From NCBI GenBank assembly GCA_964426185.1, contig CAYRPF010000049.1:1-13638 (forward strand): DNA of 13,638 bases, written 5' to 3'. Below the pieces are notes generated by a model, which saw nothing but the letters and a program-made list of their open reading frames with translations, was not told the origin of the DNA and made no database searches. The translations under genes were made by a program, and so were the position numbers. The stretch's first letter is position 1, and each line of letters begins with the position of its first letter. This stretch comes from an uncultured archaeon (GTDB lineage: Archaea > Asgardarchaeota > Lokiarchaeia > Sigyniarchaeales > Promethearchaeaceae). Shown one piece after another: positions 1 through 13,638 of the stretch.

Positions 1-2687
1 TCAACTTGAGTAATTTCTTCATCGTTTTTACTTAAGCGAATAATGTGGTGAGCGTATTCTTCAAATGTATCGTCGTGCGAAATCACAAAAATTTGCTCAA
101 ATCCATGTATATTCTGAATACTCTGCGCTAAGTTTCTTCGAGTTTCTTCATCTAAGTTAGTTGTGGGCTCATCGAAAAAGGCAAAATCAATTTGAGTTAA
201 TATTTTCAATATCGAAAGTCGAATGGCTAATGCTACAACCATTTGTTCACCACCTGACAATTGTGAAAATCTGCGCTGCGAAATTTTTTCGCTACGCAAA
301 ATTACATCATAATCTTCTTGCCATTCAATTATATAATTTGTATTATTTTTAATTTGACAGAATATGGCAGTAGCAGTTTGATTAATACTGGAAATTAAAG
401 CTTCAGTGATCTTAGGCCCAGCTTCTTTAAACCAAATTCGTAATTGTTCACAGAAATTCTCAATTTCTTCTAAATGATCAAGCTTTGCACTCAATTCTTT
501 CAATTTTTTCTCCTTTTCATACATTTTTGTTAATTTTGAGTTTATCTCAAGCATTTCTTGATTCAAGTGTTTTTTTTCTTCTTTCTTCTGAATAAGCATG
601 GTTTGTACGCGATCTAGCTTTTCTTTAAGTTCATCGTGTTTTCTTTGGTCAAAAGCCTTTGATTTTTCTAAAAAACTCTCATTTAACGATTTTAATTGAA
701 TTTGAGCTTCGGTTAGAAATTTTTGATTTTCTAAGAATTTTTTCCTATTTTCAGGGAGTGTTGCAGCTTGTTGTTGATATTTTTGATACTGCTCATAATG
801 TGGTCTTAAACTATCCATGGATTCTTGAATTTTTATCTGTATGTCTTCTAAATTATCCCCTTTTTTGACATCCTCAAGCAATTTATTTGTCGTTTTTGTT
901 ATTTGGATAATTTCTTGAGATACTTGATATGCTTGTGCTTGTTTTTGGACTAGTTCCTTCTCAACTTTTAGAGAAACAAAATTGTATCGCTCGGAATCTT
1001 GTTTTAATGGCTCCTGTTTGGTTAGAATATCTTTTAATTTAGATTGAAGCTGCACTTTTTGAGATGTTTTTTGTTCTAGTTCACCTTTTTCTTTTCGTTT
1101 TTGTTCCAGTTGCGAAAGTTGTTCTTTATACTTACTAATAAGGGTAACGATTTCTTCTTTTTCTTTTTGTAATTTAGGTTTATTTTTTAGCGTTTTTCTG
1201 TGAGATTCCAAGGTTTTGGTCAATTTTTCAATTGCTGCTAAATGATTATTGATTTTCTCTTGTAAGTAAGTAGGTAAGTCCTTGACAGGGTTATGATAAG
1301 GTTGATCACAAAGGGGACAAACTCCACTATTTGCTTGTTCAACAAACATTTTTAATTCCGATATTTGGTTTCGACGAATATGAATATTAATTCGGACTTT
1401 ATTTGATTCTTCTTCAATATCTTGGATTTGATCTAAAAGATTACTGATTTCTTCATATTTTTTCTGAGCATTTTGCCAAGCTATCGAAATTTTTTTATAT
1501 TGAGACAATTCTTGGTCAATTTTTTGAATTTGGCGTTCGAATTCGTTAATTCTGTCTAATTTAATTCTTATTTCTTCTGCATTCGTCGTTAAGGTACAAA
1601 AATGTTTATAAGATTGCTCTAAATTAGGTATTTCTTTTTTAAGAGCTTCAATTTCATTAATCTCATCAGTAATTTGATTATATTTGCTCTGCAAGGTTGC
1701 GAGTTTCCTTTCTTCGATTGCTAATTTATCTTTAATTTGAAACCATGCATGCAATTTTTGACCTATTTCTTTAAAATCTTTTTCTAATTGAATATATTTT
1801 ATGAATCCTTCTTGATTTTCTTTGCAAATCTTTTCCGCAGTCTGAGCTTCTTGCATTTTTTTTTGAAGTTCAGAATTCATATCTTGAAGTCCATTAATTT
1901 TTTCTTGCTTAATCTCTATTTCTTTTTGAGATTTTTTAATTTCTTCACTTAATTTTTCGAGTTTATCAAATTCTCCATGAATTTTACTCCATTCTGATGT
2001 AAGCTGTTTTAGATCTGAAGAAATTTTTACCACTTTTTGGGAATAAGTTTTCTTTTTTGCAAGTAATTCTGGCATTATGGATAATTCTCCTTCTAAACCG
2101 CTTTTTTGGTTTTTAGTAGATTGAATTTTTTCTTGAATCTCTCTTAGAGTGGGAAGAAAATTCTTGAATAGCTGAGAATATACGTCTACATTGAGCAAAG
2201 GTGCAAAAATCTCAGCCCGACCAGATGGAGCTCGTAGAAAAGGTTCTGTAAAAGTACCTTGTCGAACGCCAATTCCATTTTCAAAGATTGCTTTCAAATG
2301 CAAATCCTTGCGTATTCCAAGCATAGTATGAACCCATTCGTGGAAACTACTAAGCGAATTAATTTCCTTTAATTTTAAGCTTGTTTGAGTATGAGTTATT
2401 GAAAATTCATTCTTCTTTTTTCCGATTGTACGGTGAATTAAATATTCTTCTCCATCACGCGCCAAAATCCATAATTTAACTTCTCCAAAATTCTCTGATG
2501 CTCCAATTCTAACATATTGTTTCATATTTTTTCCAGGCAAGTAATCAAATAATACATAGCCTATCATTTGTAGGACAGTTGACTTTCCAGCGCCATTATC
2601 TCCCATTAATGAATTTATTCCTGGTTTGAAGGTAATTGTTGAATTTTTATGAGTGGTAATATTGATCAATTGAATTTTTTCAATCAT
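1..2687 (-). CDS. rad50: Rad50/SbcC SMC-family ATPase, 3' end truncated by the window edge (at least 895 codons)
   Basis: Manual translation from ATG 2687 gives MIEKIQLINITTHKNSTITFKPGINSLMGDNGAGKST. In one frame: Walker A at 2577-2603, Q-loop GVRQG ~2259, coiled coil, zinc hook CPLC at 1308-1319 (aa ~457, mid-protein), signature LSGGE at 246-260, Walker B/D-loop FAFFDEPTTNLD at 150-185, H-loop ISHD at 72-83. It starts 1 nt after the mre11 stop. I did not read every coiled-coil codon. All motifs share one frame, and the ORF track lists no stop-terminated ORF from this ATG, consistent with an ORF running off the edge. Confidence 0.95.
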   Translation of the reverse strand, partial: MIEKIQLINITTHKNSTITFKPGINSLMGDNGAGKSTVLQMIGYVLFDYLPGKNMKQYVRIGASENFGEVKLWILARDGEEYLIHRTIGKKKNEFSITHTQTSLKLKEINSLSSFHEWVHTMLGIRKDLHLKAIFENGIGVRQGTFTEPFLRAPSGRAEIFAPLLNVDVYSQLFKNFLPTLREIQEKIQSTKNQKSGLEGELSIMPELLAKKKTYSQKVVKISSDLKQLTSEWSKIHGEFDKLEKLSEEIKKSQKEIEIKQEKINGLQDMNSELQKKMQEAQTAEKICKENQEGFIKYIQLEKDFKEIGQKLHAWFQIKDKLAIEERKLATLQSKYNQITDEINEIEALKKEIPNLEQSYKHFCTLTTNAEEIRIKLDRINEFERQIQKIDQELSQYKKISIAWQNAQKKYEEISNLLDQIQDIEEESNKVRINIHIRRNQISELKMFVEQANSGVCPLCDQPYHNPVKDLPTYLQEKINNHLAAIEKLTKTLESHRKTLKNKPKLQKEKEEIVTLISKYKEQLSQLEQKRKEKGELEQKTSQKVQLQSKLKDILTKQEPLKQDSERYNFVSLKVEKELVQKQAQAYQVSQEIIQITKTTNKLLEDVKKGDNLEDIQIKIQESMDSLRPHYEQYQKYQQQAATLPENRKKFLENQKFLTEAQIQLKSLNESFLEKSKAFDQRKHDELKEKLDRVQTMLIQKKEEKKHLNQEMLEINSKLTKMYEKEKKLKELSAKLDHLEEIENFCEQLRIWFKEAGPKITEALISSINQTATAIFCQIKNNTNYIIEWQEDYDVILRSEKISQRRFSQLSGGEQMVVALAIRLSILKILTQIDFAFFDEPTTNLDEETRRNLAQSIQNIHGFEQIFVISHDDTFEEYAHHIIRLSKNDEEITQV

Positions 2688-2688
2688 A

Positions 2689-4341
2689 TTAAGCACCTCT
2701 CTTCTTTTTTATGAACGAATCAATATTTTCATCCATTTGTTCTTCGATATCTTCATCTAAATCATCTTCTCTATCTAAATCACCTTCTTCTGAAGTAAAC
2801 AAATGATCTATAAGAGAATTTTGTTTTTTTGATTTGGTTTTAGTTGCTTTTTTACTTTTTTTTCTGGGGTTGGATTTCTTTGAAGATAATTTTTGAGGTA
2901 CGAAATCCGCTAAAGTTTTCCGTTGTTTATCATCAATAATTGAATCTTTATTATTAGAAAAAGTCGATCTCCACCATAATTCTATAATTTGTAAGACAGA
3001 ATTTCCACCTTTTCTCGATAATAAAGATGGTTTTAAGTCTTTCATCAATTTTACTATTTGATCGGTGTAAATCTGGTAATCTGGATGCATATTTATCATT
3101 TGGGTTAAGATTTCCGTTTCAATATCATCGATAGTACGCTGTTCGGCATTGGAAATCGAAATATCATCTAACTCCGAGGTCAATCCTTGAATAAAAATGC
3201 GTACATCAAAAATTTTGAATGTTTTTAATAACTCTTCTCGTAATCGGCTGAAATTTACTTCTAATTTCGAAAACATAATACGTCCAAAAATTGAAACATA
3301 GATGAATGGTAAATTTAAATCCCGTAAATTTAATCCCTCACGATTACCACCTACTAATTCTTCAAAACCTTGCTTTTTCATTTGAATTATAACATAATCG
3401 ATTAAATCTTCAAAGTTAGCAAGGAGAACACCTTCAATATCCATTTTGACGTTGTAAAATGCTCGATTTGGTAAAGTAGAAGAGTCTTCATTTTTTCCGT
3501 TTTCAAATTCAATCAGTTCTATTTTTTGATTTATAGGGTCTTTCCCAGAAATTTCTACCAAAAACACCCCTCTTCGAAAAGGATTTCCATCATCTCCATA
3601 TAATTCTTTAGGTGCATTGATTTCAGTTGAACCTGGATTAAATATCCAAGGAGATTCTTCTGGAAGAGCATAACTTTTATGGTAGTGACCTAAAGCTAAG
3701 TAATCTATTTTTTCGTGCAAACTTTCCAGTGTTGGGGACATTTCTACACCTAATCGTCCTTTTACTTGCCCAGTAATTCCGAAATGCATCATCAGAATGT
3801 TATAGGTGGATTCATCTACAGTGAGTGAATTGTAAATTTTCGGGATCAGATCTTGAGTAATTGACCCATAATTCGGAATTCCATAAATCTTTGCATCGCC
3901 TATAGTTATTACATTTCCTTTTTTCGATTTTTTTGAATATGCCTTGAAGATCCCTGAATCTTGTGTTTCTTGAAAATTAACAGAAAGAAGAACAATTAAT
4001 TCTAAATCAGCAAGAAACTTCAACCAAGAACGTTTGGCAAAATAATTACGTTTATCGTGATTTCCTTCAATTACAATGATTGGAATAGTGCGTCCCAATT
4101 GTTCTTGCGCTTTTTGTTCAAAATTTTTAATGATAATATAAGATGCAGATAATGTTTCAGGATTGATTCTGTTTGAATTGAAAAAATCTCCGGAATGAAT
4201 AATGAAATCTACCTCTTCATCTAAGGCTTTTTCTAAAACTGCATTAAATGCCCGGTTAAAATCACGAAAACGTTCGAATAAATTGTATTGCACATTCCCG
4301 AGATGAGTATCAGCCATATGTATAAATTTGAAAGGATGCAT
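2689..4341 (-). CDS. mre11: Mre11/SbcD DNA double-strand-break repair nuclease (calcineurin-like metallophosphoesterase), 550 aa
   Basis: Phosphoesterase motifs ADTHLG, GDFF, GNHD, MMHFG, LGHYH and NPGS. It is directly upstream of rad50 and has a C-terminal ~90-aa low-complexity basic then acidic tail. Confidence 0.95.
   Translation of the reverse strand: MHPFKFIHMADTHLGNVQYNLFERFRDFNRAFNAVLEKALDEEVDFIIHSGDFFNSNRINPETLSASYIIIKNFEQKAQEQLGRTIPIIVIEGNHDKRNYFAKRSWLKFLADLELIVLLSVNFQETQDSGIFKAYSKKSKKGNVITIGDAKIYGIPNYGSITQDLIPKIYNSLTVDESTYNILMMHFGITGQVKGRLGVEMSPTLESLHEKIDYLALGHYHKSYALPEESPWIFNPGSTEINAPKELYGDDGNPFRRGVFLVEISGKDPINQKIELIEFENGKNEDSSTLPNRAFYNVKMDIEGVLLANFEDLIDYVIIQMKKQGFEELVGGNREGLNLRDLNLPFIYVSIFGRIMFSKLEVNFSRLREELLKTFKIFDVRIFIQGLTSELDDISISNAEQRTIDDIETEILTQMINMHPDYQIYTDQIVKLMKDLKPSLLSRKGGNSVLQIIELWWRSTFSNNKDSIIDDKQRKTLADFVPQKLSSKKSNPRKKSKKATKTKSKKQNSLIDHLFTSEEGDLDREDDLDEDIEEQMDENIDSFIKKKRGA
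2694..2699 (-). promoter_or_regulatory. Shine-Dalgarno GAGGTG for rad50, embedded in the last codons of mre11
   Basis: Minus strand reads AGAGAGGTGCTTAATATG. GAGGTG lies 6 nt before the ATG, and the TAA-T-ATG junction suggests translational coupling. Confidence 0.7.
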
Positions 4342-4347
4342 AGGAAA

Positions 4348-4352
4348 ACCTC
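4348..4352 (-). promoter_or_regulatory. Shine-Dalgarno GAGGT for mre11
   Basis: Minus strand TTTCGAGGTTTTCCTATG; GAGGT lies 6 nt before ATG 4341. Confidence 0.6.
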
Positions 4353-4425
4353 GAAATAATTAATAATGTTTGTTTCAGTATGCTTTTATCATTTGTGTTA
4401 TTAGCATTTTCATGTTTTAATCTAA

Positions 4426-7400
4426 TTAAAGAAGATCTTCATCTTCATCTTCTAATTTAATTGAAATTTTCTTTTCTTCCAATTTTCTACTGGTTTTTTG
4501 ATTTGAAATCTTCTGTTTTAAAGAAGATTGTGGCTTAGGGGTTTGAGAGTTTGAATTTTCTTCTTTTTGGTGAACTACTGGAAGCAAATAGGAGATAGAT
4601 TTAGGAATTGGAATTGTAGCATAATCTTTCTCTGGATCTTTTATCGTAATTTTTCCCCTTATCACCTTTTTGTCAGATCTTAGGGTAAATGTTCTTTGAT
4701 CTTTGGGTAAATTTTGAATAATTGAGAGAAAATCGGGATTGTTTGTGGCAGTAAATTCAAAGCTAGCTTGATTAATCAAATTTCCTTCATAATTGAATGA
4801 AGAGAATAATTTTTTCGGATTCTGAAGGCTTCTATCATGCCATCGAAAATAGATATATTCTGATTGACCAAGATAGTTATTTAGAAATAATGGTTCTTCT
4901 TGGTTGCAAAATTCAACCGCATATTTGTAAGATTGTGCAGCATAATTAATCAAGGTTTTATCATGGGGGATATATTCTAAGAAATTTCTGCTACAGATGT
5001 AAATTAGTTTTCGTTTTGCCCGCGAAGTTAACACATTGAATCGGTTTAAATCATAGATAAATTCTTCCTCCTTTTTGAGATGATCTTTATCTGAAATACC
5101 TATAGATGCAATAATTAATTCCCTATCTGAACCTTGAAACTTTTCTACCGAATATATAGTTGCTTGGAGACATTCCATTAGTTCTTCATCATCTAATAGA
5201 GTCAATCGGTGAGAATTATTAGTCATTTTTGTGAAAATCTGACGAAGGATGAGTCGCCCTTGAGCATTATGAGGTGACACAACACCAACAGATTGCAACC
5301 AGAAAGCTTTTTCTGCGATTTTTGTAGATAATTTTTGAGAAATCCAATAATAGAGAACAATTTGGCTAATAACATGCGCTTCTATCTGGCTGATTGCAAT
5401 TTCAAATTGGTGCTCATGAATAAGCGCGCAAACAACTCTATCTGGCTGGAATATCTCACGGATCCATGATGGTGTAGAAGAAGGAAAAATTCCATTAATG
5501 GTATAATTGCGCCCCTTAAAAAAAGCCTTTAAATTTTGATATAATGCCAATTGGCGCGTAAATTCTACAATATCAGGATGAGAACGATAATTAATTTGTA
5601 ATTGACTTTGCTGAATCCCATGATTACGAACATAATAAGAATAAAGGCTACCTAATATTGGTTCTACATTTTTGGGAGGTTCTACTGGTTGAACTGGTGG
5701 CAATTGAAAATAATCTCCCACGATCACAACTTGTGAGAGATAATCAGGGTCAATAGTTTCAAGCACTTCATTTTTTGAAGTGATCTCCCACTGAGAGGTT
5801 AACATGGAAGTAGAAGATTGAACTTGTGAAAGTTTTATTGATTGAGAGTGAATAAATTGCAAAGAAGCCAAAAAATGATCTGTTGGAACTTGACTCGCTT
5901 CATCTACAATGATTAAATCAAAATTTAGAACATTCATTGTGATACTGGGAAGATGATACAATTGATGAGCATTTCCGAAAAGAATAAACTGATCTTTTAA
6001 CACATTTTGCAGCTGCTTTTTCTTTGTAATTATCCTTTTAAGACCATTCCATTGCCAACTTCCTGAAGATTTATGCAAAAGATCATCAATGTGTGGAAGA
6101 TTGGGCTCATCATCAATGGGATCTACTGACTCTGAATGAAGGAAAATTAATTGTATGGAAGAAACATTTGTCCGATTTCCGAATTGATCCCGACTGTTTC
6201 GAATCTTATCAATTAAAACTCGAAGTGCTGCATAGGAAAAGGCGGTAATTAGAATATTAATCGGAGCGTTACTACCTCTTTTTTGCTTTATTCGGCAAAT
6301 ATATTCATCGAGAAGTGTGGTTATTGTTTGAGACTTTCCTGTTCCAGGAGGACCTTGAATAGCATAAATAAATGAATTTAATGCTTTAGAAATGGCATCT
6401 TTTTGGCTTGGGTCTGGTGCAGGATATGCTTTAGTAATTAGCTGGTAAGAGCTACTGTTTTGAATGGAAACAAATGACTTGGGTTTTTGGGGCAAATTAG
6501 AAAGAATTTCGGGATAATATAAGAATATTTCTGGCATTTCAACTTGTTGTGTTTTAGGCAATGAAGTTAATTGAATAGTATTGATTTTCCATTTATTTAC
6601 AAGATTAAAACCTAAAATACTGTCTCCAAAATGATTGTTTTGTAACAATCCACTCCCCCTTGCATTATAGAGCTTGTTACTCCAAGCATCTAAGGATAAT
6701 GGATATAAATACCAATTAGTTATTTTTTTAGGATTTGGGACGGTTTGCTGATATAAAGTAACTAAATCATTTCTATGAGGTGCAGTTTTTATCTGAAATC
6801 CGTTAATTTTTGATTTCCAAACCATCCGTTCGATCTCAACCATCCATGAATAAGTCCATTTACCAATTTTTCTATCACGTAGTTCATTAGGGATCAATAA
6901 CACACGATCTTTTTCTTTAATTTTCATATTGCTGGAAAGATTACGAATCTCGAACAGATAATATGAATTTCCCTTCCCTAAATTGGGAATATACTGTAGA
7001 TTTTGAACTTCAGCAGCATTTAATTTACTAATACTGAAGTTTGGATACATTGTCCTTATTTCATCAACTTCTAATTCTTGAATGGCTCCAGTTAATTTTG
7101 CAAAAAAATACCATAAATGGGCAATTTTATGGAAGGTGGGAGGGAGGGAAATTTCATTAAATAAATCTAAACTGACAGGGTTTGATTCCCAAGGAATAAT
7201 ATCTGTGCTTTCTACTTGGAATTTTTTACGAAGAAGGTTGATATATTTTGCTTTCCGAGCCAATTGTTTTAATATTTCATCTTTTAATACTTGTTTCTCC
7301 GCAAGTTCTTTAGCTTCCAAATACTCATACCAGACTTGATAGTCCATATAATTGAAGTGTTGTAGCCAGAATTTTTTCTTGAAATTAGTATTAAAAATTG

Positions 7401-9468
7401 CTGCTCCGATTTCGTGCCAAGTATAATTTATCAATGCTGGAAAACCCACCACAGTCTCCGTAAACTTACGAAGATCAAATAATTTATGATGTTGATAGGG
7501 ATGCTCTACTTCAGATTCCGCAGGTGTGAAATATTGGATAATTTCTAATAACTTTTGATAGTGATTTGGATGAATAATCAGTTTTTCCAAATTGCGCTCC
7601 ATCACATTTTGCATATTTTTAATTTGATCTTGTGCCCAATAGTAAACAGATAAATCCAATCGATGTTTCTGGTAAAAAACCTTCTTATTTTTTCGATTTA
7701 CAACTTTTTTTTCAAAGATAAGACGATTTTCTAAAATTGAGCATATCTTAAAAATCGAGATTAAAATCTTAATGATTTTAAATAACATATTTAACTCGCT
7801 TTGCGGATTAGATACGCTTTGATTTAACACCTCAAAGTGATATTTAACTTTGGTACGCGGGGCAATTTTTTGATCCGGTAAAATTTGTCCTTCTATCGTA
7901 ATTTCTAAGGGGATATTGTTCAAAATTTGATGATGAAAGATCTTAATTTCATTTATTGGAAAATCTTTGTAAAAAGGATTAGCTTGCTGAAGATCTTGGA
8001 GGATTACGGCAGGTGTTTTATTGTGTGTTAACCCTTCTTTCCATATTTTCCACCATTGATGAAATTTGGGATAATTTGGTGCTTTTTTTGGAACCATCAT
8101 TTCTAATAATAAAGCAAATCCAAAAACTCGTTCATTTAATGGATCGGACTCAATGGTAAAAATCAAACTAATTGGGGAATATTTTGGAATGGCATAACTG
8201 TACATTTGCTGCTTTGGGGGATAAATCGGTTTTCCTTGTACTAATGCTTCTGCTCGTTGTTTCAAAAAAGGTATTTCTGCATAAATTGGTTGAGGTATAG
8301 ATCCAACTTGTATTGTATGAATACGCTTTGCAACATCACCTACAGTCTTAAAACCTAGTTGTTTTAATTGCATGATTACAGAGGTATTCGCATAAGGGAT
8401 AACTTCCAATGCCCAATTTTCAACTGGATTCTTTTCAGTTACCCCCAAACGGTATAAACAATCATTCAAAAATTGACAACTTCCACATAAAGGTTGAATA
8501 TTCAAGGGTATTGATGCAATACTACACGGAGCTTGCTTCCATAACCATTGAAATTGCCAAATTACATCATAATACATTCTCACAACATTGTTCCAGTCCA
8601 TAATCACCATGTTTGAATATAAATCATCCAAGCAGTTAATTTGTGATATAACTGATGGATCTAATCTCGGCAATATACCGTTTCCTTCAGAAATCACCAA
8701 GAATTTATCATCCAATGTATGTTTATGGAGATACCATGCCATTGCATGCATGTAGTATAATATTTCAATAAAATGAGATTTGCCGATATTAGGTTCGAGA
8801 ACATGCTTGATATCAATTATTGAAATACCATATATCGGTTGTGATGTATTAGGTACCTTGGTGGTTAATCTATTATTATAATTTAAATATGAAATTGAAC
8901 TATGTTTACTATTATTAAGTGATAAACGCTTAAGGACTATAATATCTGGTCGAAATTTAGAATATGTAATGGGTAGTGGATCTTGAGGGTTTTTTGCAGG
9001 AAAAATTTCCTCAAAAAAATCGTCTCCAGCATTAAATTCGCCTTCCAGTATGAAGACTTCATCAATATTGTTGGGAACACATTTTTGGTAAATTGCATTT
9101 AGTAAGTCGGGTGTAATTTTTCGTTTGAGGAACACGTTTTTAGGAATGCTACGCGTAAAAATACAGTTTGCAAATGATGTTAAATGTGAATATATTGTCT
9201 GTTCATATATATGACCTTGCTTCATTGCAAATTCAGAACCTGCTCGCGCTGGAATCCGCGGTTTTGATTTTTCCAGAGGATTACGCCATTGTGGACTATT
9301 TGGAAGATAAAGAAATGCTTGACGCAAGCAACCTCCTTCAATTAATCGTTTTAGAGATAATTTATTGAAATGTTTAGGGATTTTCCATTCAGAAGTAATT
9401 TCTTTTTCAATTTCATAAACAGGTCTAGTATCTTCTATCTGAAATATATGAAATTCGTTAGCTTTCAT
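4426..9468 (-). CDS. Dna2-like nuclease-helicase fusion: Fe-S PD-(D/E)xK (Cas4/RecB/AddB-type) nuclease + TM0106-like HhH/RNase H-fold region + SF1 (Dna2/Upf1/Nam7-like) helicase, ~1680 aa
   Basis: Numbering follows the 1694-aa track ORF. Nuclease: C61...C342-x2-C345-x5-C351, RPD189, D233-I-K235, E-x3-Y (HFIEILYY). Helicase: Q-motif PSQKDAI, Walker A GPPGTGKS (6331-6354), Ia LITAFSYAA, Walker B IVDEASQ (DEASQ at 5890-5904), III VGDYFQLPP, IV NYRSHPDI, VSPHNAQ, V SVEKFQGSDRE, VI RFNVLTSRAKRKL. ATG 9468 is preferred over the track's TTG 9510 because GAGGT sits 5 nt upstream. Confidence 0.9.
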   Translation of the reverse strand: MKANEFHIFQIEDTRPVYEIEKEITSEWKIPKHFNKLSLKRLIEGGCLRQAFLYLPNSPQWRNPLEKSKPRIPARAGSEFAMKQGHIYEQTIYSHLTSFANCIFTRSIPKNVFLKRKITPDLLNAIYQKCVPNNIDEVFILEGEFNAGDDFFEEIFPAKNPQDPLPITYSKFRPDIIVLKRLSLNNSKHSSISYLNYNNRLTTKVPNTSQPIYGISIIDIKHVLEPNIGKSHFIEILYYMHAMAWYLHKHTLDDKFLVISEGNGILPRLDPSVISQINCLDDLYSNMVIMDWNNVVRMYYDVIWQFQWLWKQAPCSIASIPLNIQPLCGSCQFLNDCLYRLGVTEKNPVENWALEVIPYANTSVIMQLKQLGFKTVGDVAKRIHTIQVGSIPQPIYAEIPFLKQRAEALVQGKPIYPPKQQMYSYAIPKYSPISLIFTIESDPLNERVFGFALLLEMMVPKKAPNYPKFHQWWKIWKEGLTHNKTPAVILQDLQQANPFYKDFPINEIKIFHHQILNNIPLEITIEGQILPDQKIAPRTKVKYHFEVLNQSVSNPQSELNMLFKIIKILISIFKICSILENRLIFEKKVVNRKNKKVFYQKHRLDLSVYYWAQDQIKNMQNVMERNLEKLIIHPNHYQKLLEIIQYFTPAESEVEHPYQHHKLFDLRKFTETVVGFPALINYTWHEIGAAIFNTNFKKKFWLQHFNYMDYQVWYEYLEAKELAEKQVLKDEILKQLARKAKYINLLRKKFQVESTDIIPWESNPVSLDLFNEISLPPTFHKIAHLWYFFAKLTGAIQELEVDEIRTMYPNFSISKLNAAEVQNLQYIPNLGKGNSYYLFEIRNLSSNMKIKEKDRVLLIPNELRDRKIGKWTYSWMVEIERMVWKSKINGFQIKTAPHRNDLVTLYQQTVPNPKKITNWYLYPLSLDAWSNKLYNARGSGLLQNNHFGDSILGFNLVNKWKINTIQLTSLPKTQQVEMPEIFLYYPEILSNLPQKPKSFVSIQNSSSYQLITKAYPAPDPSQKDAISKALNSFIYAIQGPPGTGKSQTITTLLDEYICRIKQKRGSNAPINILITAFSYAALRVLIDKIRNSRDQFGNRTNVSSIQLIFLHSESVDPIDDEPNLPHIDDLLHKSSGSWQWNGLKRIITKKKQLQNVLKDQFILFGNAHQLYHLPSITMNVLNFDLIIVDEASQVPTDHFLASLQFIHSQSIKLSQVQSSTSMLTSQWEITSKNEVLETIDPDYLSQVVIVGDYFQLPPVQPVEPPKNVEPILGSLYSYYVRNHGIQQSQLQINYRSHPDIVEFTRQLALYQNLKAFFKGRNYTINGIFPSSTPSWIREIFQPDRVVCALIHEHQFEIAISQIEAHVISQIVLYYWISQKLSTKIAEKAFWLQSVGVVSPHNAQGRLILRQIFTKMTNNSHRLTLLDDEELMECLQATIYSVEKFQGSDRELIIASIGISDKDHLKKEEEFIYDLNRFNVLTSRAKRKLIYICSRNFLEYIPHDKTLINYAAQSYKYAVEFCNQEEPLFLNNYLGQSEYIYFRWHDRSLQNPKKLFSSFNYEGNLINQASFEFTATNNPDFLSIIQNLPKDQRTFTLRSDKKVIRGKITIKDPEKDYATIPIPKSISYLLPVVHQKEENSNSQTPKPQSSLKQKISNQKTSRKLEEKKISIKLEDEDEDLL

Positions 9469-9473
9469 GTTAT

Positions 9474-9478
9474 ACCTC
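9474..9478 (-). promoter_or_regulatory. Shine-Dalgarno GAGGT for the nuclease-helicase gene
   Basis: Minus strand AAGAGGTATAACATG; same motif and similar spacing as before mre11 and rad50. Confidence 0.6.
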
Positions 9479-9494
9479 TTATGTTCATGTATGA

Positions 9495-9525
9495 ATTCTT
9501 TTCTTAACAAATATTCTTTTCTTAA
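9495..9525. repeat. 13-bp perfect direct repeat ATTCTTTTCTTAA x2 (5-bp spacer), candidate operator
   Basis: ATTCTTTTCTTAA at 9495-9507 and 9513-9525, between a TTTAAAA TATA-like element (~9530-9536, minus strand) and the helicase RBS. Confidence 0.55.
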
Positions 9526-9529
9526 GGTA

Positions 9530-9609
9530 TTTTAAATTCTTGGCTCTTCTAAATTTTTAGAATAATTGGTAAGAATTATCTTTCTGCTTAATTTAGTAAT
9601 TATATATAT
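9530..9609. promoter_or_regulatory. Divergent promoter region with TATA-like boxes and a 16-bp inverted repeat
   Basis: TTTAAAA on the minus strand ~9530-9536; TTCTAAA-TT-TTTAGAA inverted repeat at 9547-9562; TTATATATAT at 9600-9609, starting 26 nt before the GT4 ATG at 9626. Confidence 0.4.
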
Positions 9610-9625
9610 CGCGGATAATTTCACC

Positions 9626-10768
9626 ATGAGAATCGTTATCTACTTGGGGACATTTAAAAAAAATCATGATGGTGTTGCTCGAGCCACCTATCAATTAGTT
9701 GACTCTCTTTTAACTAAAGGTCATAAAGTGCTGGTTGCTTCACCATTAATAACCCCTCAAAGGCGTAAAAATTTAATTTTATTTAAATTTCCGGCCATAC
9801 CACTCTTTTTTTATCCCGAATATAAGTTTGGAATCCCTATAATGCAATACTTCAACCTTATACTTCGATTTAAACCAGATATTATCCATATCGCAACTCC
9901 AGATTTAATTGGAATGATGACGAGCTTATTCGGGCATATAAGGAAAATTCCTCAAGTTTTTGCCCATCATTCAGATATAATTGCAGTTTTTCGTTATTAT
10001 GGTTTAGGTTTTTTGGAAAAGGGAATTCTTTGGATGTATCGCACCTTTTATAATCACGCTTGCGCAACTTTTGTTCCCACTCGAAAGATACAAGCAAACC
10101 TACGAAAACATGGAATTCATCGGGTGTTTTTATGGTCACGCGGCATTGATCGTAAACAATTCCATCCTAATTTACGATCTGAATCTCTTCGAAAATCTTG
10201 GGGCGCTGAAAATCGACCTGTGATTTTATATACTGGGCGTTTAGTATGGTATAAAGATTTAGATGTTCTTGCTGAGGTCTACCTTTTTTTTCAAGATCAG
10301 AAAACCAATAAACCCCTCTTTGTTTTAGCGGGAGATGGGCCTATCCGAAAAGATATTGAGAAGTTGATGCCCAAAGCGGTATTTTTAGGTTATGTCGAAG
10401 ATTTAAAGCTAGGTAAAACGTTTGCAAGTTCAGATCTATTTTTATTCCCATCTACAACTGAAACCTTTGGACAAGTAGTTCAAGAAGCCTTGGCATCAGG
10501 AATTCCTGCGATTGTTTCTAATATTGGGGGATGCCAAGAAATTATTGAAAAATCACAAGCAGGAATGATTGTAGCTGCAAAAGATTCACAAGCATTTTTA
10601 AAGGCTTGCAAAAAATTGCTTGAAGATAAAGAATTTTACCAAAGGTGTCAGTTTAATGGTTTGAAATTTGCTAAAAACCGATCTTGGTCACATATTAATG
10701 AAGAACTTCTCAAAAAATATGAAAAAATCATTGATTTCTGGCACAATGAACGCAAAAAAAAAATGTAA
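9626..10768 (+). CDS. GT4 (GT-B fold) glycosyltransferase, MgtA/SQD2/PimB-like group, ~380 aa
   Basis: MRIVIY...DGVAR N-terminus, KPDIIHIATP, WSRGIDRKQFHP, YTGRLVWYKDL, LAGDGP, and the EX7E motif ETFGQVVQEALASGIP. ATG 9626 is preferred over TTG 9566, since the family N-terminus starts there and the extension overlaps a TATA-like tract. Confidence 0.9.
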   Translation: MRIVIYLGTFKKNHDGVARATYQLVDSLLTKGHKVLVASPLITPQRRKNLILFKFPAIPLFFYPEYKFGIPIMQYFNLILRFKPDIIHIATPDLIGMMTSLFGHIRKIPQVFAHHSDIIAVFRYYGLGFLEKGILWMYRTFYNHACATFVPTRKIQANLRKHGIHRVFLWSRGIDRKQFHPNLRSESLRKSWGAENRPVILYTGRLVWYKDLDVLAEVYLFFQDQKTNKPLFVLAGDGPIRKDIEKLMPKAVFLGYVEDLKLGKTFASSDLFLFPSTTETFGQVVQEALASGIPAIVSNIGGCQEIIEKSQAGMIVAAKDSQAFLKACKKLLEDKEFYQRCQFNGLKFAKNRSWSHINEELLKKYEKIIDFWHNERKKKM

Positions 10769-10773
10769 AAAAA

Positions 10774-12165
10774 TTAAAAATCGTCCAATTTTGCCTCTGA
10801 AGATTCCTTCCCAAATACTGGAGAATCAGAAATCTGGAGATATTGCTTCTCCTTCTCCTTCACATTTAAGCGATTGGAATGATATTGTGTAATTATTCCC
10901 CGAAGTTTAATTAGAATCCATTCCAGACTAAATTTATAATGAACTTTTTCCCAATATTTGGAGAGAACCCACCAGAAAGTAACTTGAATCCCTACAAAAA
11001 GATACATCTGAATGAATCTATCTGTCGGAAACGAAGGGATTAAATCCCATAACGGCATATACCATTTAAGGGTTAAAACGCAGATGATACTCTCGAAAAC
11101 ATACATTGTCAAGGTAATTACCCCGAATCTGAACAAAAATTTCGTTCTTTTTATCATTTTCTTAGGGTTTTTCGGTTTTCGAAATTCCCAAATTTCTATA
11201 AAAATGGCTTGAACCAGTAAAATATAACCGAGATCGAAAACTTCGATTTCAAATGGAATAAAAGAACCCAATAATTCGGGTGAGAGATTATTTCCAAATA
11301 AAAGCATATATAAACCAGCACCTAACATTATAAGGGGGCCCACAACCCAGCCAATAATTCTAAAAAATCTCTTTTTCCACCTTGAGGCAAATGTAATTCC
11401 AAAGATTAAACCAAAAAAACCGTACGCTGCGCTGGGGAATGTACTGTTGGGCGGGCCAATAATAAATTTCAAGAGAATAACCGTCAGATATTGTTTTTGA
11501 TCTAATGCTTCAAAAAATAACGAATCAAACGATTGATGTAGAAATTTTGAAGCCATAAACCATAATATCCCACATACTGTTAAGATGATTAGGTTCTTTT
11601 CAACTTTTTGATAACCTTTTTTCCGCCAAAGCAAAGAAAGCGCAGTTACGCTAATCAATCCATTCAAGGCGATTAATGCAATTGCATCGGTCTGAAAAAG
11701 CACCTGGATATCTGTCCATATAAAATGTCCAACTTCTAAGGAACCAGTTATCACAGTTCGTTGAATGCTTCCATTCCAATGCAATCCATAATGAAATAGC
11801 GATACATGGAAAAGGGAAAAAATGAATAAAAGGGCAAAACTTACCCCAGATGCATAGAGTCCCCTATTAATTGATCTCCGAATCATTTGAGGATTTTGGT
11901 TCAAGTTTTTCTGCACAATAGATTGCATCTTGAACCCCAATGCGGTACTGGAAATAATGGCGAATACTGCTCCACAAGTGGAAAATGCTATTAATGGAGA
12001 AAGTACAATGACCATCCATAAAGGAAATTCGTCCAGAGGGATCAAATTGTAATCCCACAAGATGATATGGGAAAAAGAGTGCGAAAGGATGATAAAAAGC
12101 CCTACAAAACCCCTAAAAACGTCCAAGTAGAGGAGACGATTTTTTGTTTTTGTTAAATCACTCAT
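10774..12165 (-). CDS. Polytopic membrane protein, HGSNAT/DUF1624 (acyltransferase-3/DUF418-related) putative membrane acyl/acetyltransferase, 463 aa
   Basis: N-terminal RLLYLDVFRG...ILSH motif, about 10-11 hydrophobic segments, and C-terminal GVITLTMYVFES...W...FSLEW resembling the DUF418-type end. Confidence 0.75.
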   Translation of the reverse strand: MSDLTKTKNRLLYLDVFRGFVGLFIILSHSFSHIILWDYNLIPLDEFPLWMVIVLSPLIAFSTCGAVFAIISSTALGFKMQSIVQKNLNQNPQMIRRSINRGLYASGVSFALLFIFSLFHVSLFHYGLHWNGSIQRTVITGSLEVGHFIWTDIQVLFQTDAIALIALNGLISVTALSLLWRKKGYQKVEKNLIILTVCGILWFMASKFLHQSFDSLFFEALDQKQYLTVILLKFIIGPPNSTFPSAAYGFFGLIFGITFASRWKKRFFRIIGWVVGPLIMLGAGLYMLLFGNNLSPELLGSFIPFEIEVFDLGYILLVQAIFIEIWEFRKPKNPKKMIKRTKFLFRFGVITLTMYVFESIICVLTLKWYMPLWDLIPSFPTDRFIQMYLFVGIQVTFWWVLSKYWEKVHYKFSLEWILIKLRGIITQYHSNRLNVKEKEKQYLQISDSPVFGKESSEAKLDDF

Positions 12166-12189
12166 TATTTATCTAGTGACACTGTTAAT

Positions 12190-12204
12190 GAATAAATTTT
12201 ATTC
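12190..12204. promoter_or_regulatory. Inverted repeat GAATAAA-T-TTTATTC over the expected TATA position of the membrane-protein gene
   Basis: Perfect 7-1-7 palindrome 25-39 nt upstream of ATG 12165; AT-rich, so it may be chance. Confidence 0.3.
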
Positions 12205-12402
12205 TTGGGCTACTTGACTTAGCATTTTTTTCGATTTTCCATATGGATACATCAGAAGTTAATGGAATTCATATTTTAACATTCAAATCGATTGGAAATT
12301 TGACGAAGAAGAAAAAATGATCCATACGAACCTATTTTTTTTACCTCTAATCAAGAATTCAAACTAATTTATGCAAAAAACTAATAATAAAGGAGGAAAA
12401 AA

Positions 12403-12486
12403 ATGGAAAGAAAAATTAAATTTTGTTATAACCTCCCCCGTTTATGTGTGAGGTGTTTGAAGCATTTTTTTCTTAATTTTACTTAA
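12403..12486 (+). CDS. Possible 27-aa Cys/His-containing micro-protein MERKIKFCYNLPRLCVRCLKHFFLNFT
   Basis: AGGAGG at 12391-12396, 6 nt before ATG 12403; stop TAA at 12484-12486; C-x6-C-x2-C-x2-H pattern. No recognisable homology. Confidence 0.25.
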   Translation: MERKIKFCYNLPRLCVRCLKHFFLNFT

Positions 12487-12529
12487 TCTTACCGATTTTT
12501 ACTGAATTTCCTTATTTTTATATTATTTC

Positions 12530-13516
12530 TTACTTAATTTTTTTCTTTAAATTAAAATCAATATCTCTTAAGTAAATATGCTCACCTTTCTCATGAATAA
12601 CATGGCCAGTCGTGATAGTTCCATACTTAGAGGTGGAAGAAAAAACGTAATACAATCGATTCGGAAATATCTCTTGAAAAACACCTCTGGGATGCTCGTG
12701 TGAACGATAAATTCGTTGGAGATTGTTCATTTTCAAAAAAGCATCCAGCTCCGGTTCGGTATAGAAATAGAATCCATGATATGAACGGGCATTAGGGTGT
12801 TCAAGTTCTTTTTCGGTTGGGTCATTCCAGCGAATTTGTGTAAAAATTTCCTTTAACTCGCCTTTTAATTGTATATCTGATAAAGCATTAAAATTGGAAT
12901 GAGGTTTAGGCAGGAGATTTAAAGTTCCTAAAGGATATGCTACTTTAGGAATACCTGCATGAATACAAAGCGATTCCAATGGAGATACTGCGGCTAAAGA
13001 CATTAAATCATAAAGAGCAACGATAATAGCTTGTATTGCCTTAAAGACATCAGGATTTTCAAAATACTGCTGTAGTTCTTCATTAAAACCGAAAATTAAA
13101 TTTAATGCCATATCTTCATGATTTCCCCGTAGTATTATTACCCTATCAGGCCAAGCCAAGCATAAACCCAAAATATACATTAAATTTAAAAAACTGAATT
13201 TACCCCGATCTACATAATCTCCCATGAAAACCAAAGCATCAACTTTTCCTTGCAAAAATGGTCGGGTAAGCCGCAACGTCGAATCAAGGTCTCCATGAGT
13301 ATCCCCCACAATTAGTACATTTTTAAATTGAGGACCAAGTTCGGAGAGTCTTATTACATTAGGTAAGGAGAGCGCCAGCGATTGGAATTTTAGCCATATC
13401 TTGCCCATATCAAATAAACTGAAAGGAGAGACATTTCTCATAAATGTATATGCTTCTGGATCTTTCAAGAAGCGTTCTAAACTACGGGGTACGGTGTTTT
13501 GATTAAGATGACGCAT
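12530..13516 (-). CDS. PPP-family serine/threonine protein phosphatase (PP1/PP2A/PP5-like metallophosphoesterase), ~328 aa
   Basis: GDTHG (13292-13306), GDYVDRG, LRGNHE, HAG, WNDP, RSHE and VFSS motifs. ATG 13516 is preferred over TTG 13588, which lies inside the tandem repeat; TTATAT sits 27-32 nt upstream of 13516. Confidence 0.9.
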   Translation of the reverse strand: MRHLNQNTVPRSLERFLKDPEAYTFMRNVSPFSLFDMGKIWLKFQSLALSLPNVIRLSELGPQFKNVLIVGDTHGDLDSTLRLTRPFLQGKVDALVFMGDYVDRGKFSFLNLMYILGLCLAWPDRVIILRGNHEDMALNLIFGFNEELQQYFENPDVFKAIQAIIVALYDLMSLAAVSPLESLCIHAGIPKVAYPLGTLNLLPKPHSNFNALSDIQLKGELKEIFTQIRWNDPTEKELEHPNARSYHGFYFYTEPELDAFLKMNNLQRIYRSHEHPRGVFQEIFPNRLYYVFSSTSKYGTITTGHVIHEKGEHIYLRDIDFNLKKKIK

Positions 13517-13572
13517 TATAGCTGTCTCGATTAGAATATTAGATATAATACCATATTTTCTCTGAAATTTAT

Positions 13573-13638
13573 AACTTTTTACATCCAAATAATCCTATCT
13601 TTCGAACTTTTTACATCCAAATAATCCTATCTTTCGAA
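13573..13638. repeat. Perfect 32-bp tandem direct repeat AACTTTTTACATCCAAATAATCCTATCTTTCG, 2 full copies plus 2 nt, running to the window end
   Basis: Copy 1 at 13573-13604, copy 2 at 13605-13636, then AA at 13637-13638; the copies are identical and have no spacer. Confidence 0.95.

Follow-up and report, generated by a model that had tools for sequence, protein, structure and literature searches.

Gene order at the locus and in related genomes

The stretch of DNA analysed here (the window, 13,638 nucleotides) comprises bases 1-13638 of a 23.9-kb contig, C49, in a 3.26-Mb genome (92% complete, 34% G+C), and it contains a gene for a 1680-residue nuclease-helicase followed, head to tail on the minus strand, by mre11 and rad50 (Table 1). 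A preliminary description of the sequence had taken these genes for an apparent operon pairing a Dna2-like nuclease-helicase with Mre11-Rad50, and had left it conditional whether the host was an Asgard archaeon. The host does belong there: the genus is Candidatus (Ca.) Harpocratesius, order Promethearchaeales, the nearest homologues are labelled Ca. Harpocratesius, Promethearchaeota or Heimdallarchaeota, and the same-genus genome is that of Ca. Harpocratesius repetitus FW102. The physical arrangement was also as described. The three co-oriented genes are separated by gaps of 84 bp and 1 bp, and each ATG is preceded by a ribosome-binding site, which reads AGAGGT plus 5 nt for the nuclease-helicase (ATG at 9468) and GAGGT plus 6 nt and GAGGTG plus 6 nt for the other two. 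T runs between the helicase stop codon and the mre11 ribosome-binding site reach 3 at most, and a terminator scan found no terminator-like hairpin in either gap. A sigma-70 promoter scan returned the same counts as shuffled sequences and is not informative for an archaeon.

Mre11 and Rad50 display the features of the archaeal proteins. All three phosphoesterase motifs (DxH, GD, GNHD) are found in Mre11, and Rad50 has Walker A, a signature motif, Walker B and a long coiled coil with a CxxC zinc hook (CPLC, residues 457-460). The rad50 gene is cut short by the contig end, where the window begins; its match to the NCBIfam Rad50 model PRK03918 (217 bits) spans profile positions 3-869 of 878, and therefore few codons are missing. 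Scores against the Mre11-Rad50 models stayed below the NCBIfam equivalog cut-off (217 bits vs 700). A search of the genome found no second Rad50, and the window Mre11-Rad50 is its sole pair.

The adjacency proposed from this single locus proved to be conserved. A full-length homologue of the N-terminal 1000 residues of the nuclease-helicase is present in 52/400 genomes of the phylum, and in twenty 20-kb loci mre11 and then rad50 follow every primary orthologue from the order of the window genome. The gaps between helicase and mre11 in these relatives are 9-97 nt, MK-D1 excepted, with the shortest at 9-23 nt and that of Ca. Lokiarchaeum ossiferum B35 at 58 nt. In a scan of named genomes, Mre11-Rad50 was adjacent in 24 of 25 informative Promethearchaeota loci, including those of the cultured Promethearchaeum syntrophicum MK-D1 and Ca. 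Lokiarchaeum ossiferum B35. Neither herA nor nurA, whose position directly after rad50, together with a lack of interaction, the preliminary description would have counted against its proposal, was found in the 20-kb loci of the relatives.

MK-D1 (L083/L046) carries a 2.8-kb insertion between helicase and mre11, and all three genes are still in one locus. The insertion itself consists of an opposite-strand oxidoreductase-like gene and a CitMHS transporter gene. At L080, mre11-rad50 is divergently oriented, yet adjacent to the helicase, while genome G229 keeps the helicase without Mre11-Rad50 downstream. In genome G133 (L127, G133:C103:1-7894) the order is nuclease-helicase (3′ end), a herA paralogue, mre11 and rad50, an arrangement that may be intermediate between herA-mre11-rad50 and the three-gene module. 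Some genomes also encode a paralogue of the nuclease-helicase, and this one does not adjoin Mre11-Rad50.

The genes flanking the module are of the housekeeping kind and differ between genera, and no integrase or defence island was seen around it. An integrated mobile element was rejected as an explanation, with no integrase present and a composition like that of the genome. The closest relative has convergent ABC transporter genes after rad50. Genus g21 (L052, L057, L058, L089, L094) has three further genes behind rad50, for a second SMC/Rad50-like protein (839-863 residues), a 175-residue protein and a MoxR-type AAA_5 ATPase; an ATPase of the MoxR type is also encoded after the alternative cluster, described below, in genome G146. 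Also in the window, a 463-residue open reading frame (10774-12165, minus strand) has no Pfam, NCBIfam or PADLOC match, and a conserved, syntenic counterpart (59% identity) exists in Ca. Harpocratesius repetitus alone.

Architecture of the nuclease-helicase

Table 1. Coordinates of the genes and of the predicted parts of the nuclease-helicase in the window.
Feature	Residues	Window position	Strand	Basis
Nuclease-helicase gene (P0001), 1680 residues		4426..9468 (incl. stop codon)	minus	Open reading frame and translation, ATG 9468
Cas4/AddB/Dna2-class PD-(D/E)XK nuclease, Cys C47, C328, C331, C337	~31-345	8434..9378	minus	Invariant motifs and predicted fold
(HhH)2-like DNA-binding module (predicted)	~347-414	8227..8430	minus	VIA structural matches
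DEDD (RNase H-like) 3′-5′ exonuclease fold, family-B polymerase type	~430-808	7045..8181	minus	VIA; catalytic status uncertain
Beta-barrel and linker ahead of motor	~819-1000	6469..7014	minus	Strands 819-895 in model
SF1B Upf1-like helicase core	~1019-1510	4939..6414	minus	Pfam AAA_11/AAA_12, invariant motifs
C-terminal extension with acidic tail (...EDEDEDLL)	1546-1680	4429..4833	minus	Alignment A1, columns 1860-2015
Helicase-mre11 spacer, 84 bp		4342..4425	minus	Sequence
mre11, 550 residues		2689..4341	minus	Pfam Metallophos and NCBIfam archaeal Mre11 models
rad50, 895 residues visible, 3′ end cut by contig edge		3..2687	minus	NCBIfam Rad50 PRK03918

Five parts follow one another in the nuclease-helicase: first an Fe-S nuclease and an (HhH)2 module, then a DEDD exonuclease fold of the PolB kind and a beta-barrel, and last the SF1B helicase. 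We aligned it with homologues in sets of 14 and 31 sequences, the latter all spanning the full length. Invariant among the 31 are C47, E142, D175, D219-x-K221, E235...Y239 and C328-x2-C331-x5-C337, a set that reproduces the catalytic and cysteine pattern known from Cas4/AddB/Dna2 "iron-staple" nucleases; a 4Fe-4S cluster is predicted from the cysteine pattern alone. Pfam and NCBIfam recognise just the helicase core (AAA_11/AAA_12, residues 1033-1508) and returned no match to residues 1-1000 even at E <= 10. Although unseen by these models, the Fe-S nuclease can be taken as real because its motifs are conserved and its fold is predicted.

AlphaFold models were built for residues 1-1000 (pLDDT 82) and 1-430 (pLDDT 87). 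For residues 31-345 the best VIA match was Cas4 (Z 10.5, root-mean-square deviation (rmsd) 4.3, 192 residues aligned), followed by MGME1 (Z 8.4), AddB (Z 8.1, ~220 residues), RecE, SSO0001, Dna2 (Z 7.5, 201 residues) and AdnA (Z 7.2). Foldseek placed Cas4 (8d3l_I) first for the nuclease domain model and Dna2 (5eax) next, with Dna2 at ranks 2-4, and these two were its only plausible matches. With the 1000-residue model Foldseek found nothing at E <= 0.001; its weak matches to Upf1, Sen1 and Dna2 cores may fall in the modelled beta-barrel region, residues 819-1000.

Two parts lie between the nuclease and the beta-barrel. Residues 347-414 match the RAD51 N-terminal domain (VIA Z 6.8-6.9, rmsd 2.4-3.1, ~60 residues aligned, 20-22% identity) and the HhH modules of Pol theta and NusA. 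The exonuclease-fold domain, absent from the preliminary description, was matched in a wide VIA search to the exonuclease domains of Pol alpha, Pol epsilon and PolB (Z 10.5-12, rmsd 3.0-3.8, 168-200 residues aligned), with dozens of DEDD exonucleases below them. DEDD exonucleases have four conserved acidic residues (Exo I DxE, Exo II D, Exo III D). In the nuclease-helicase family E440 is at least 90% conserved, and D442, E558 and E580 (invariant) are conserved as well; the first aspartate of Exo I is replaced by Thr438 in the window protein and varies across the family. The activity of this domain is uncertain for that last reason.

The helicase core has the AAA_11/AAA_12 domains, Walker A/B and motifs III-VI of an SF1B Upf1-like motor, with GPPGTGK, DE, GDxxQLPP, NYRS, VEKFQGS and R1483 invariant, and against PDB profiles it matched IGHMBP2, Dna2, Sen1 and Upf1 at 54-61 bits. 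An Fe-S RecB-class nuclease and an SF1B helicase are thus joined in a single protein, as the preliminary description had read from the letters. The C-terminal extension with its acidic tail is confined to the four closest homologues. The tail itself (window 4429-4470, minus strand, residues ~1667-1680) is acidic with hydrophobic last residues, ...EDEDEDLL here and ...DDDLF in relatives, and may be likened to the partner-binding C-terminal tip of bacterial SSB.

A scan for segments conserved solely in the Mre11-Rad50-linked orthologues gave no more than modest differences, at residues 467-616, 917-976 and 1097-1156, and no clear docking region emerged from it. A complex prediction with Mre11 1-465 and nuclease-helicase 430-960 scored 0.00, which gives no verdict and counts neither for nor against binding.

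Distribution and possible function

To follow the module across the order we surveyed 154 genomes; since these are related, the counts are descriptive and do not amount to a statistical test. The helicase family is present in 38/154 genomes and the long Rad50 of the window type in 42/154, the two together in 36/154. Only 2/154 have the helicase alone and 6/154 the long Rad50 alone, and 110/154 have neither. Among the long-Rad50-only cases, those in G143, G175 and G252 are fragments, and those in G271 and one of two copies in G254 begin ~2 kb from the contig start.

Complete genomes without the module carry an alternative cluster of mre11 (424 residues), rad50 (~700 residues, with a zinc hook), a herA-like gene (585 residues) and a 387-residue gene. 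Examples lie at L075:7319-13670, L076, L077 and L128 (genomes G146, G148, G167, G241); the 387-residue protein has no Pfam match and is possibly NurA-like. This cluster occurs in 55/154 genomes. By subtraction, 39 genomes have the module only, 52 the alternative cluster only, 3 both and 60 neither type, and the module thus largely excludes the alternative mre11-rad50-herA-like cluster in the order. Restricting the count to 39 high-quality genomes gave 8 with the module, 16 with the alternative cluster and at least 15 without either Rad50 type. The Mre11 of the module scores 87-103 bits against herA-linked Asgard Mre11 and 39-47 bits against the short-cluster type; its Rad50 aligns over the full length with the herA-linked type of other Asgard families, and the short type aligns at the ATPase ends only. 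Judged by these alignments, the Mre11-Rad50 of the module is nearer to the pair that other Asgard families encode next to herA than to that of the short cluster.

The window genome also encodes a solitary HerA (C12, 536 residues) and a solitary NurA (C73, 557 residues). Across the order HerA is found in 143/154 and NurA in 140/154 genomes, both unlinked to Mre11-Rad50. Because both are retained in nearly all genomes, the nuclease-helicase is no replacement for HerA-NurA in gene content, and a simple replacement was rejected. Mre11-Rad50 seems to be dispensable in the order, while HerA and NurA are nearly universal; the absence of Mre11-Rad50 from many genomes runs counter to the common description of this pair as conserved among archaea (PMC12993045). 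Directly upstream of mre11-rad50, two other Asgard families have a bona fide herA, with HAS barrel and DUF87. Elsewhere in the window genome, at C53:16958-19622 (L011:2959-5623, minus strand), a 606-residue HerA paralogue precedes an mre11-like gene that is broken by a stop codon and is 40% identical to the window Mre11 over ~200 residues. This pair looks like a decayed second herA-mre11 cluster, and its HerA paralogue resembles the herA paralogue inside the G133 operon.

We consider it somewhat better than even (a probability of about 0.55) that the three genes are a conserved operon for an end-processing machine, in which the nuclease-helicase is a functional Dna2/AddB analogue working with Mre11-Rad50. 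Mre11-Rad50 would recognise, tether and clip DNA ends, and the 1680-residue protein would then load on the 5′ strand. Its SF1B motor would move 5′ to 3′ and feed single-stranded DNA into the Cas4-type Fe-S nuclease, with the HhH module and the exonuclease-fold domain holding, and possibly trimming, the DNA; the product would be long 3′ tails for RadA. We infer the polarity, the substrate, the contact with Mre11-Rad50 and the role in recombinational repair. The end-processing reading is supported by the adjacency and co-inheritance of the three genes, by catalytic residues that are intact in the nuclease, helicase, Mre11 and Rad50, by a position equivalent to that of herA, and by the G133 arrangement. 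The predicted folds, the lack of any other Mre11-Rad50 in the genome, the near-exclusion of the alternative cluster and flanking genes free of integrases and defence islands speak for it too.

A bolder version goes further, and we offer it tentatively, as clearly less likely than the reading just given. Here Loki-type Asgard archaea would have evolved their own single-chain Dna2/AddB-like resection enzyme for long-range work, docking on Mre11-Rad50; it would have taken the slot of herA in an ancestral herA-mre11-rad50 operon, with G133 preserving an intermediate that has both, and the whole unit would be an interchangeable cassette alternating with the mre11-rad50-herA-like cassette.

Several observations weigh against an end-processing partnership. 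The module is accessory in the order, and its patchy distribution, varying within a genus, is typical of defence genes too. With HerA and NurA nearly everywhere, there is no obvious need for another system of long-range resection. Orthologues of the nuclease-helicase in other Asgard families (Heimdall metagenome-assembled genomes, MAGs) and full-length homologues in Myxococcota and "Deltaproteobacteria" MAGs do not adjoin Mre11-Rad50, and members that stand alone must function independently of it; neighbour clustering found no conserved partner gene beside these bacterial and Heimdall homologues. Finally, among the PADLOC models the helicase domain is matched best by MkoA, a component of the Mokosh defence system.

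Some of these points lead to the main rival, that the module is an anti-virus or anti-plasmid system in which Rad50-Mre11 senses free or unusual ends of invader DNA and the nuclease-helicase degrades it processively. We regard this as unlikely, if still the strongest of the alternatives. Beyond the patchy distribution and the repair capacity already supplied by HerA and NurA, it draws on the alternation with the other Mre11-Rad50 cluster, on an apparent crossing of the family between Asgard archaea and Myxococcota, and on PADLOC, where the top scores of the helicase domain are with defence helicases (MkoA at 101 bits over residues 1247-1505, DpdJ, PDC-S37) and the ATPase head of Rad50 matches the LmuB and mad3 models. 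These matches, however, do not extend beyond generic helicase and ATPase domains to any PADLOC system model, and the neighbouring genes encode transporters, glycosyltransferases and metabolic enzymes, with no defence island or mobile-element genes among them. Rad50, with its zinc hook, and Mre11 score best over their full length against archaeal models of the repair type, they are the only such pair in the genome, and a herA paralogue sits within the G133 operon, all of which weighs against a defence role.

Assignment to the Prometheus/ProA or Hhe defence proteins was tried and rejected, as the window protein gave only P-loop matches to them and the DUF4011 protein is a separate gene on C29. 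That gene (L071:4239-8504, plus strand) encodes a 1421-residue protein that combines DUF4011 and AAA_11/12 with a restriction-endonuclease-like MTES_1575 domain, a Hhe/Prometheus-like defence architecture distinct from the window helicase.

It is less probable again that the nuclease-helicase, though a co-transcribed neighbour, serves a different pathway (processing of stalled forks or flaps, for instance, or the removal of RNA or R-loops) and does not share substrates with Mre11-Rad50. The Heimdall and Myxococcota homologues without adjacent Mre11-Rad50 would fit such a role, as would the persistence of the helicase in G229, and Upf1-like motors often act on RNA. Nonetheless, near-perfect co-occurrence and adjacency over ~20 genera, maintained through rearrangements, are hard to explain without a shared function, and we continue to prefer the end-processing machine.

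Relation to Dna2 and to other known systems

The preliminary description had regarded the nuclease-helicase as a possible counterpart of eukaryotic Dna2 and its operon as bearing on the origin of eukaryotic resection. The Asgard host, the union of Fe-S nuclease and SF1B helicase and the conserved adjacency all stood; the evolutionary link to Dna2 was not borne out. On contig C7 of the same genome we found a 1199-residue protein with Pfam Dna2 (29-30 bits, above the cut-off) and PDDEXK_1 nuclease matches and strong AAA_11/AAA_12 matches, whereas residues 1-1000 of the window protein gave no match to Pfam Dna2 (PF08696) even at E <= 10. The C7 and window proteins are 20% identical, in the motor only. 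In BLASTP comparisons, scallop DNA2 aligned with the C7 protein at 127 bits (helicase) plus 31 bits (nuclease) and with the window protein at 55 bits (helicase only). A maximum-likelihood tree of 27 helicase cores contained a 100/100 split, with eukaryotic DNA2 and the C7 type on one side and the window family, together with more distant relatives, on the other; this tree has long branches, a single eukaryotic sequence and a sampling that does not include Upf1, Sen1 or IGHMBP2. A type IA (Top3-like) topoisomerase gene (L070:9367-11655, plus strand) begins 19 nt downstream of the C7 gene (L070:5745-9347, plus strand), and the pair is reminiscent of the eukaryotic Dna2 / Sgs1-Top3 partnership.

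The C7 gene is the better candidate for an Asgard relative of eukaryotic Dna2, and by the same comparisons the window protein falls outside Dna2 proper. In a tree published in 2025 (PMC12680538), some Asgard homologues are reported to lie close to eukaryotic Dna2, and our results suggest that these are of the C7 type. That the window protein is an Asgard orthologue or precursor of eukaryotic Dna2, and its operon the direct ancestor of MRX-Dna2 resection, is very improbable and already largely refuted: the order of Fe-S nuclease ahead of SF1B motor, the presence of Dna2 among the structural matches and that published tree speak for it, but the Pfam model and the eukaryotic protein both point to the C7 gene, Cas4 has the nearest nuclease fold, the DEDD-fold domain is additional, and the family has bacterial members.

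How wide the family is was examined with a profile of the N-terminal region, which matched 359 cluster representatives at E <= 0.001 among 1.84 billion proteins. The best matches are mostly full-length proteins of 1400-1750 residues; a second tier of 1370-1480 residues has the nuclease-HhH part and the same general architecture in common with them. Bacterial full-length homologues come from Myxococcota, Bradymonadales, Polyangiales and 'Deltaproteobacteria' MAGs (L105, L106, L109, L114, L115, L117-L121, L123, L125, L126) and are 26-31% identical to the window protein in the N-terminal 1000 residues and 38-44% in the helicase. In the helicase tree the four sampled bacterial members form one clade within an unresolved archaeal polytomy, and for this reason transfer between the domains, in either direction, is suggested. 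The nuclease-helicase is a separate, unnamed family common to Asgard archaea and Myxococcota.

Our literature searches found no description of the operon or of the nuclease-helicase family. Asgard resection is described as "completely uncharacterized" in a 2026 review, which raises the question whether nucleases such as Dna2 took over from NurA functionally (PMC13748450). The locus bears on how ends are resected in non-thermophilic archaea and on how eukaryotes came to use Dna2 and Exo1 over HerA-NurA, and it supplies Asgard archaea with a concrete candidate, conserved at that, for the nuclease-helicase that partners Mre11-Rad50. This candidate is testable because two cultured strains, MK-D1 and Loki-B35, have the locus. 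The existence of a different Asgard gene that fits the role better is a reason for caution against reading it as the ancestor of Dna2.

The operon shares features with several known systems and coincides with none of them. As in the archaeal herA-mre11-rad50-nurA operon, mre11-rad50 has a helicase and a nuclease for company, and herA in two other Asgard families occupies the slot of the nuclease-helicase. In contrast, HerA is a hexameric FtsK-like ATPase and NurA an RNase H-fold nuclease, neither is homologous to the window protein, and in the window genome both lie unlinked elsewhere. Members of the TM0106 family (TIGR03491; Cas4-like plus RNase_H_2/PF13482) have the order Cas4-like nuclease, HhH and PolB-like RNase H-fold exonuclease, and the window protein likewise places a Cas4-like nuclease before an RNase H-fold domain. 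It differs from them in its fused beta-barrel and SF1B motor and in lacking a conserved first Exo I aspartate, and it had no match to TIGR03491 at E <= 0.1 or to PF13482 at E <= 10. Cas4 itself, the closest solved fold, has a matching catalytic and cysteine pattern, whereas the window nuclease is part of a 1680-residue motor protein without CRISPR context.

In its proposed function the window protein would work like AddAB/AdnAB or Dna2. AddAB and AdnAB combine a motor with a Cas4-type Fe-S nuclease devoted to double-strand ends, and the AddB and AdnA nucleases both align to the window model. They are two-subunit SF1A machines with no genomic link to SbcCD, whereas the window protein is a single SF1B chain in an Mre11-Rad50 operon. 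With eukaryotic Dna2 it shares the single chain, the four-cysteine (C...Cx2Cx5C) PD-(D/E)XK nuclease N-terminal to an SF1B motor, a nuclease domain that can be superimposed, and a link to Mre11-Rad50, which is functional in the case of Dna2 with Mre11-Rad50-Xrs2/Nbs1 and genomic here. It departs from Dna2 in the inserted DEDD exonuclease-fold domain and HhH module, in the missing Pfam Dna2 match and in a helicase core that lies across the 100/100 split. The locus probably encodes an undescribed DNA-end-resection machine, built like Dna2 or AddB and not the ancestor of eukaryotic Dna2.

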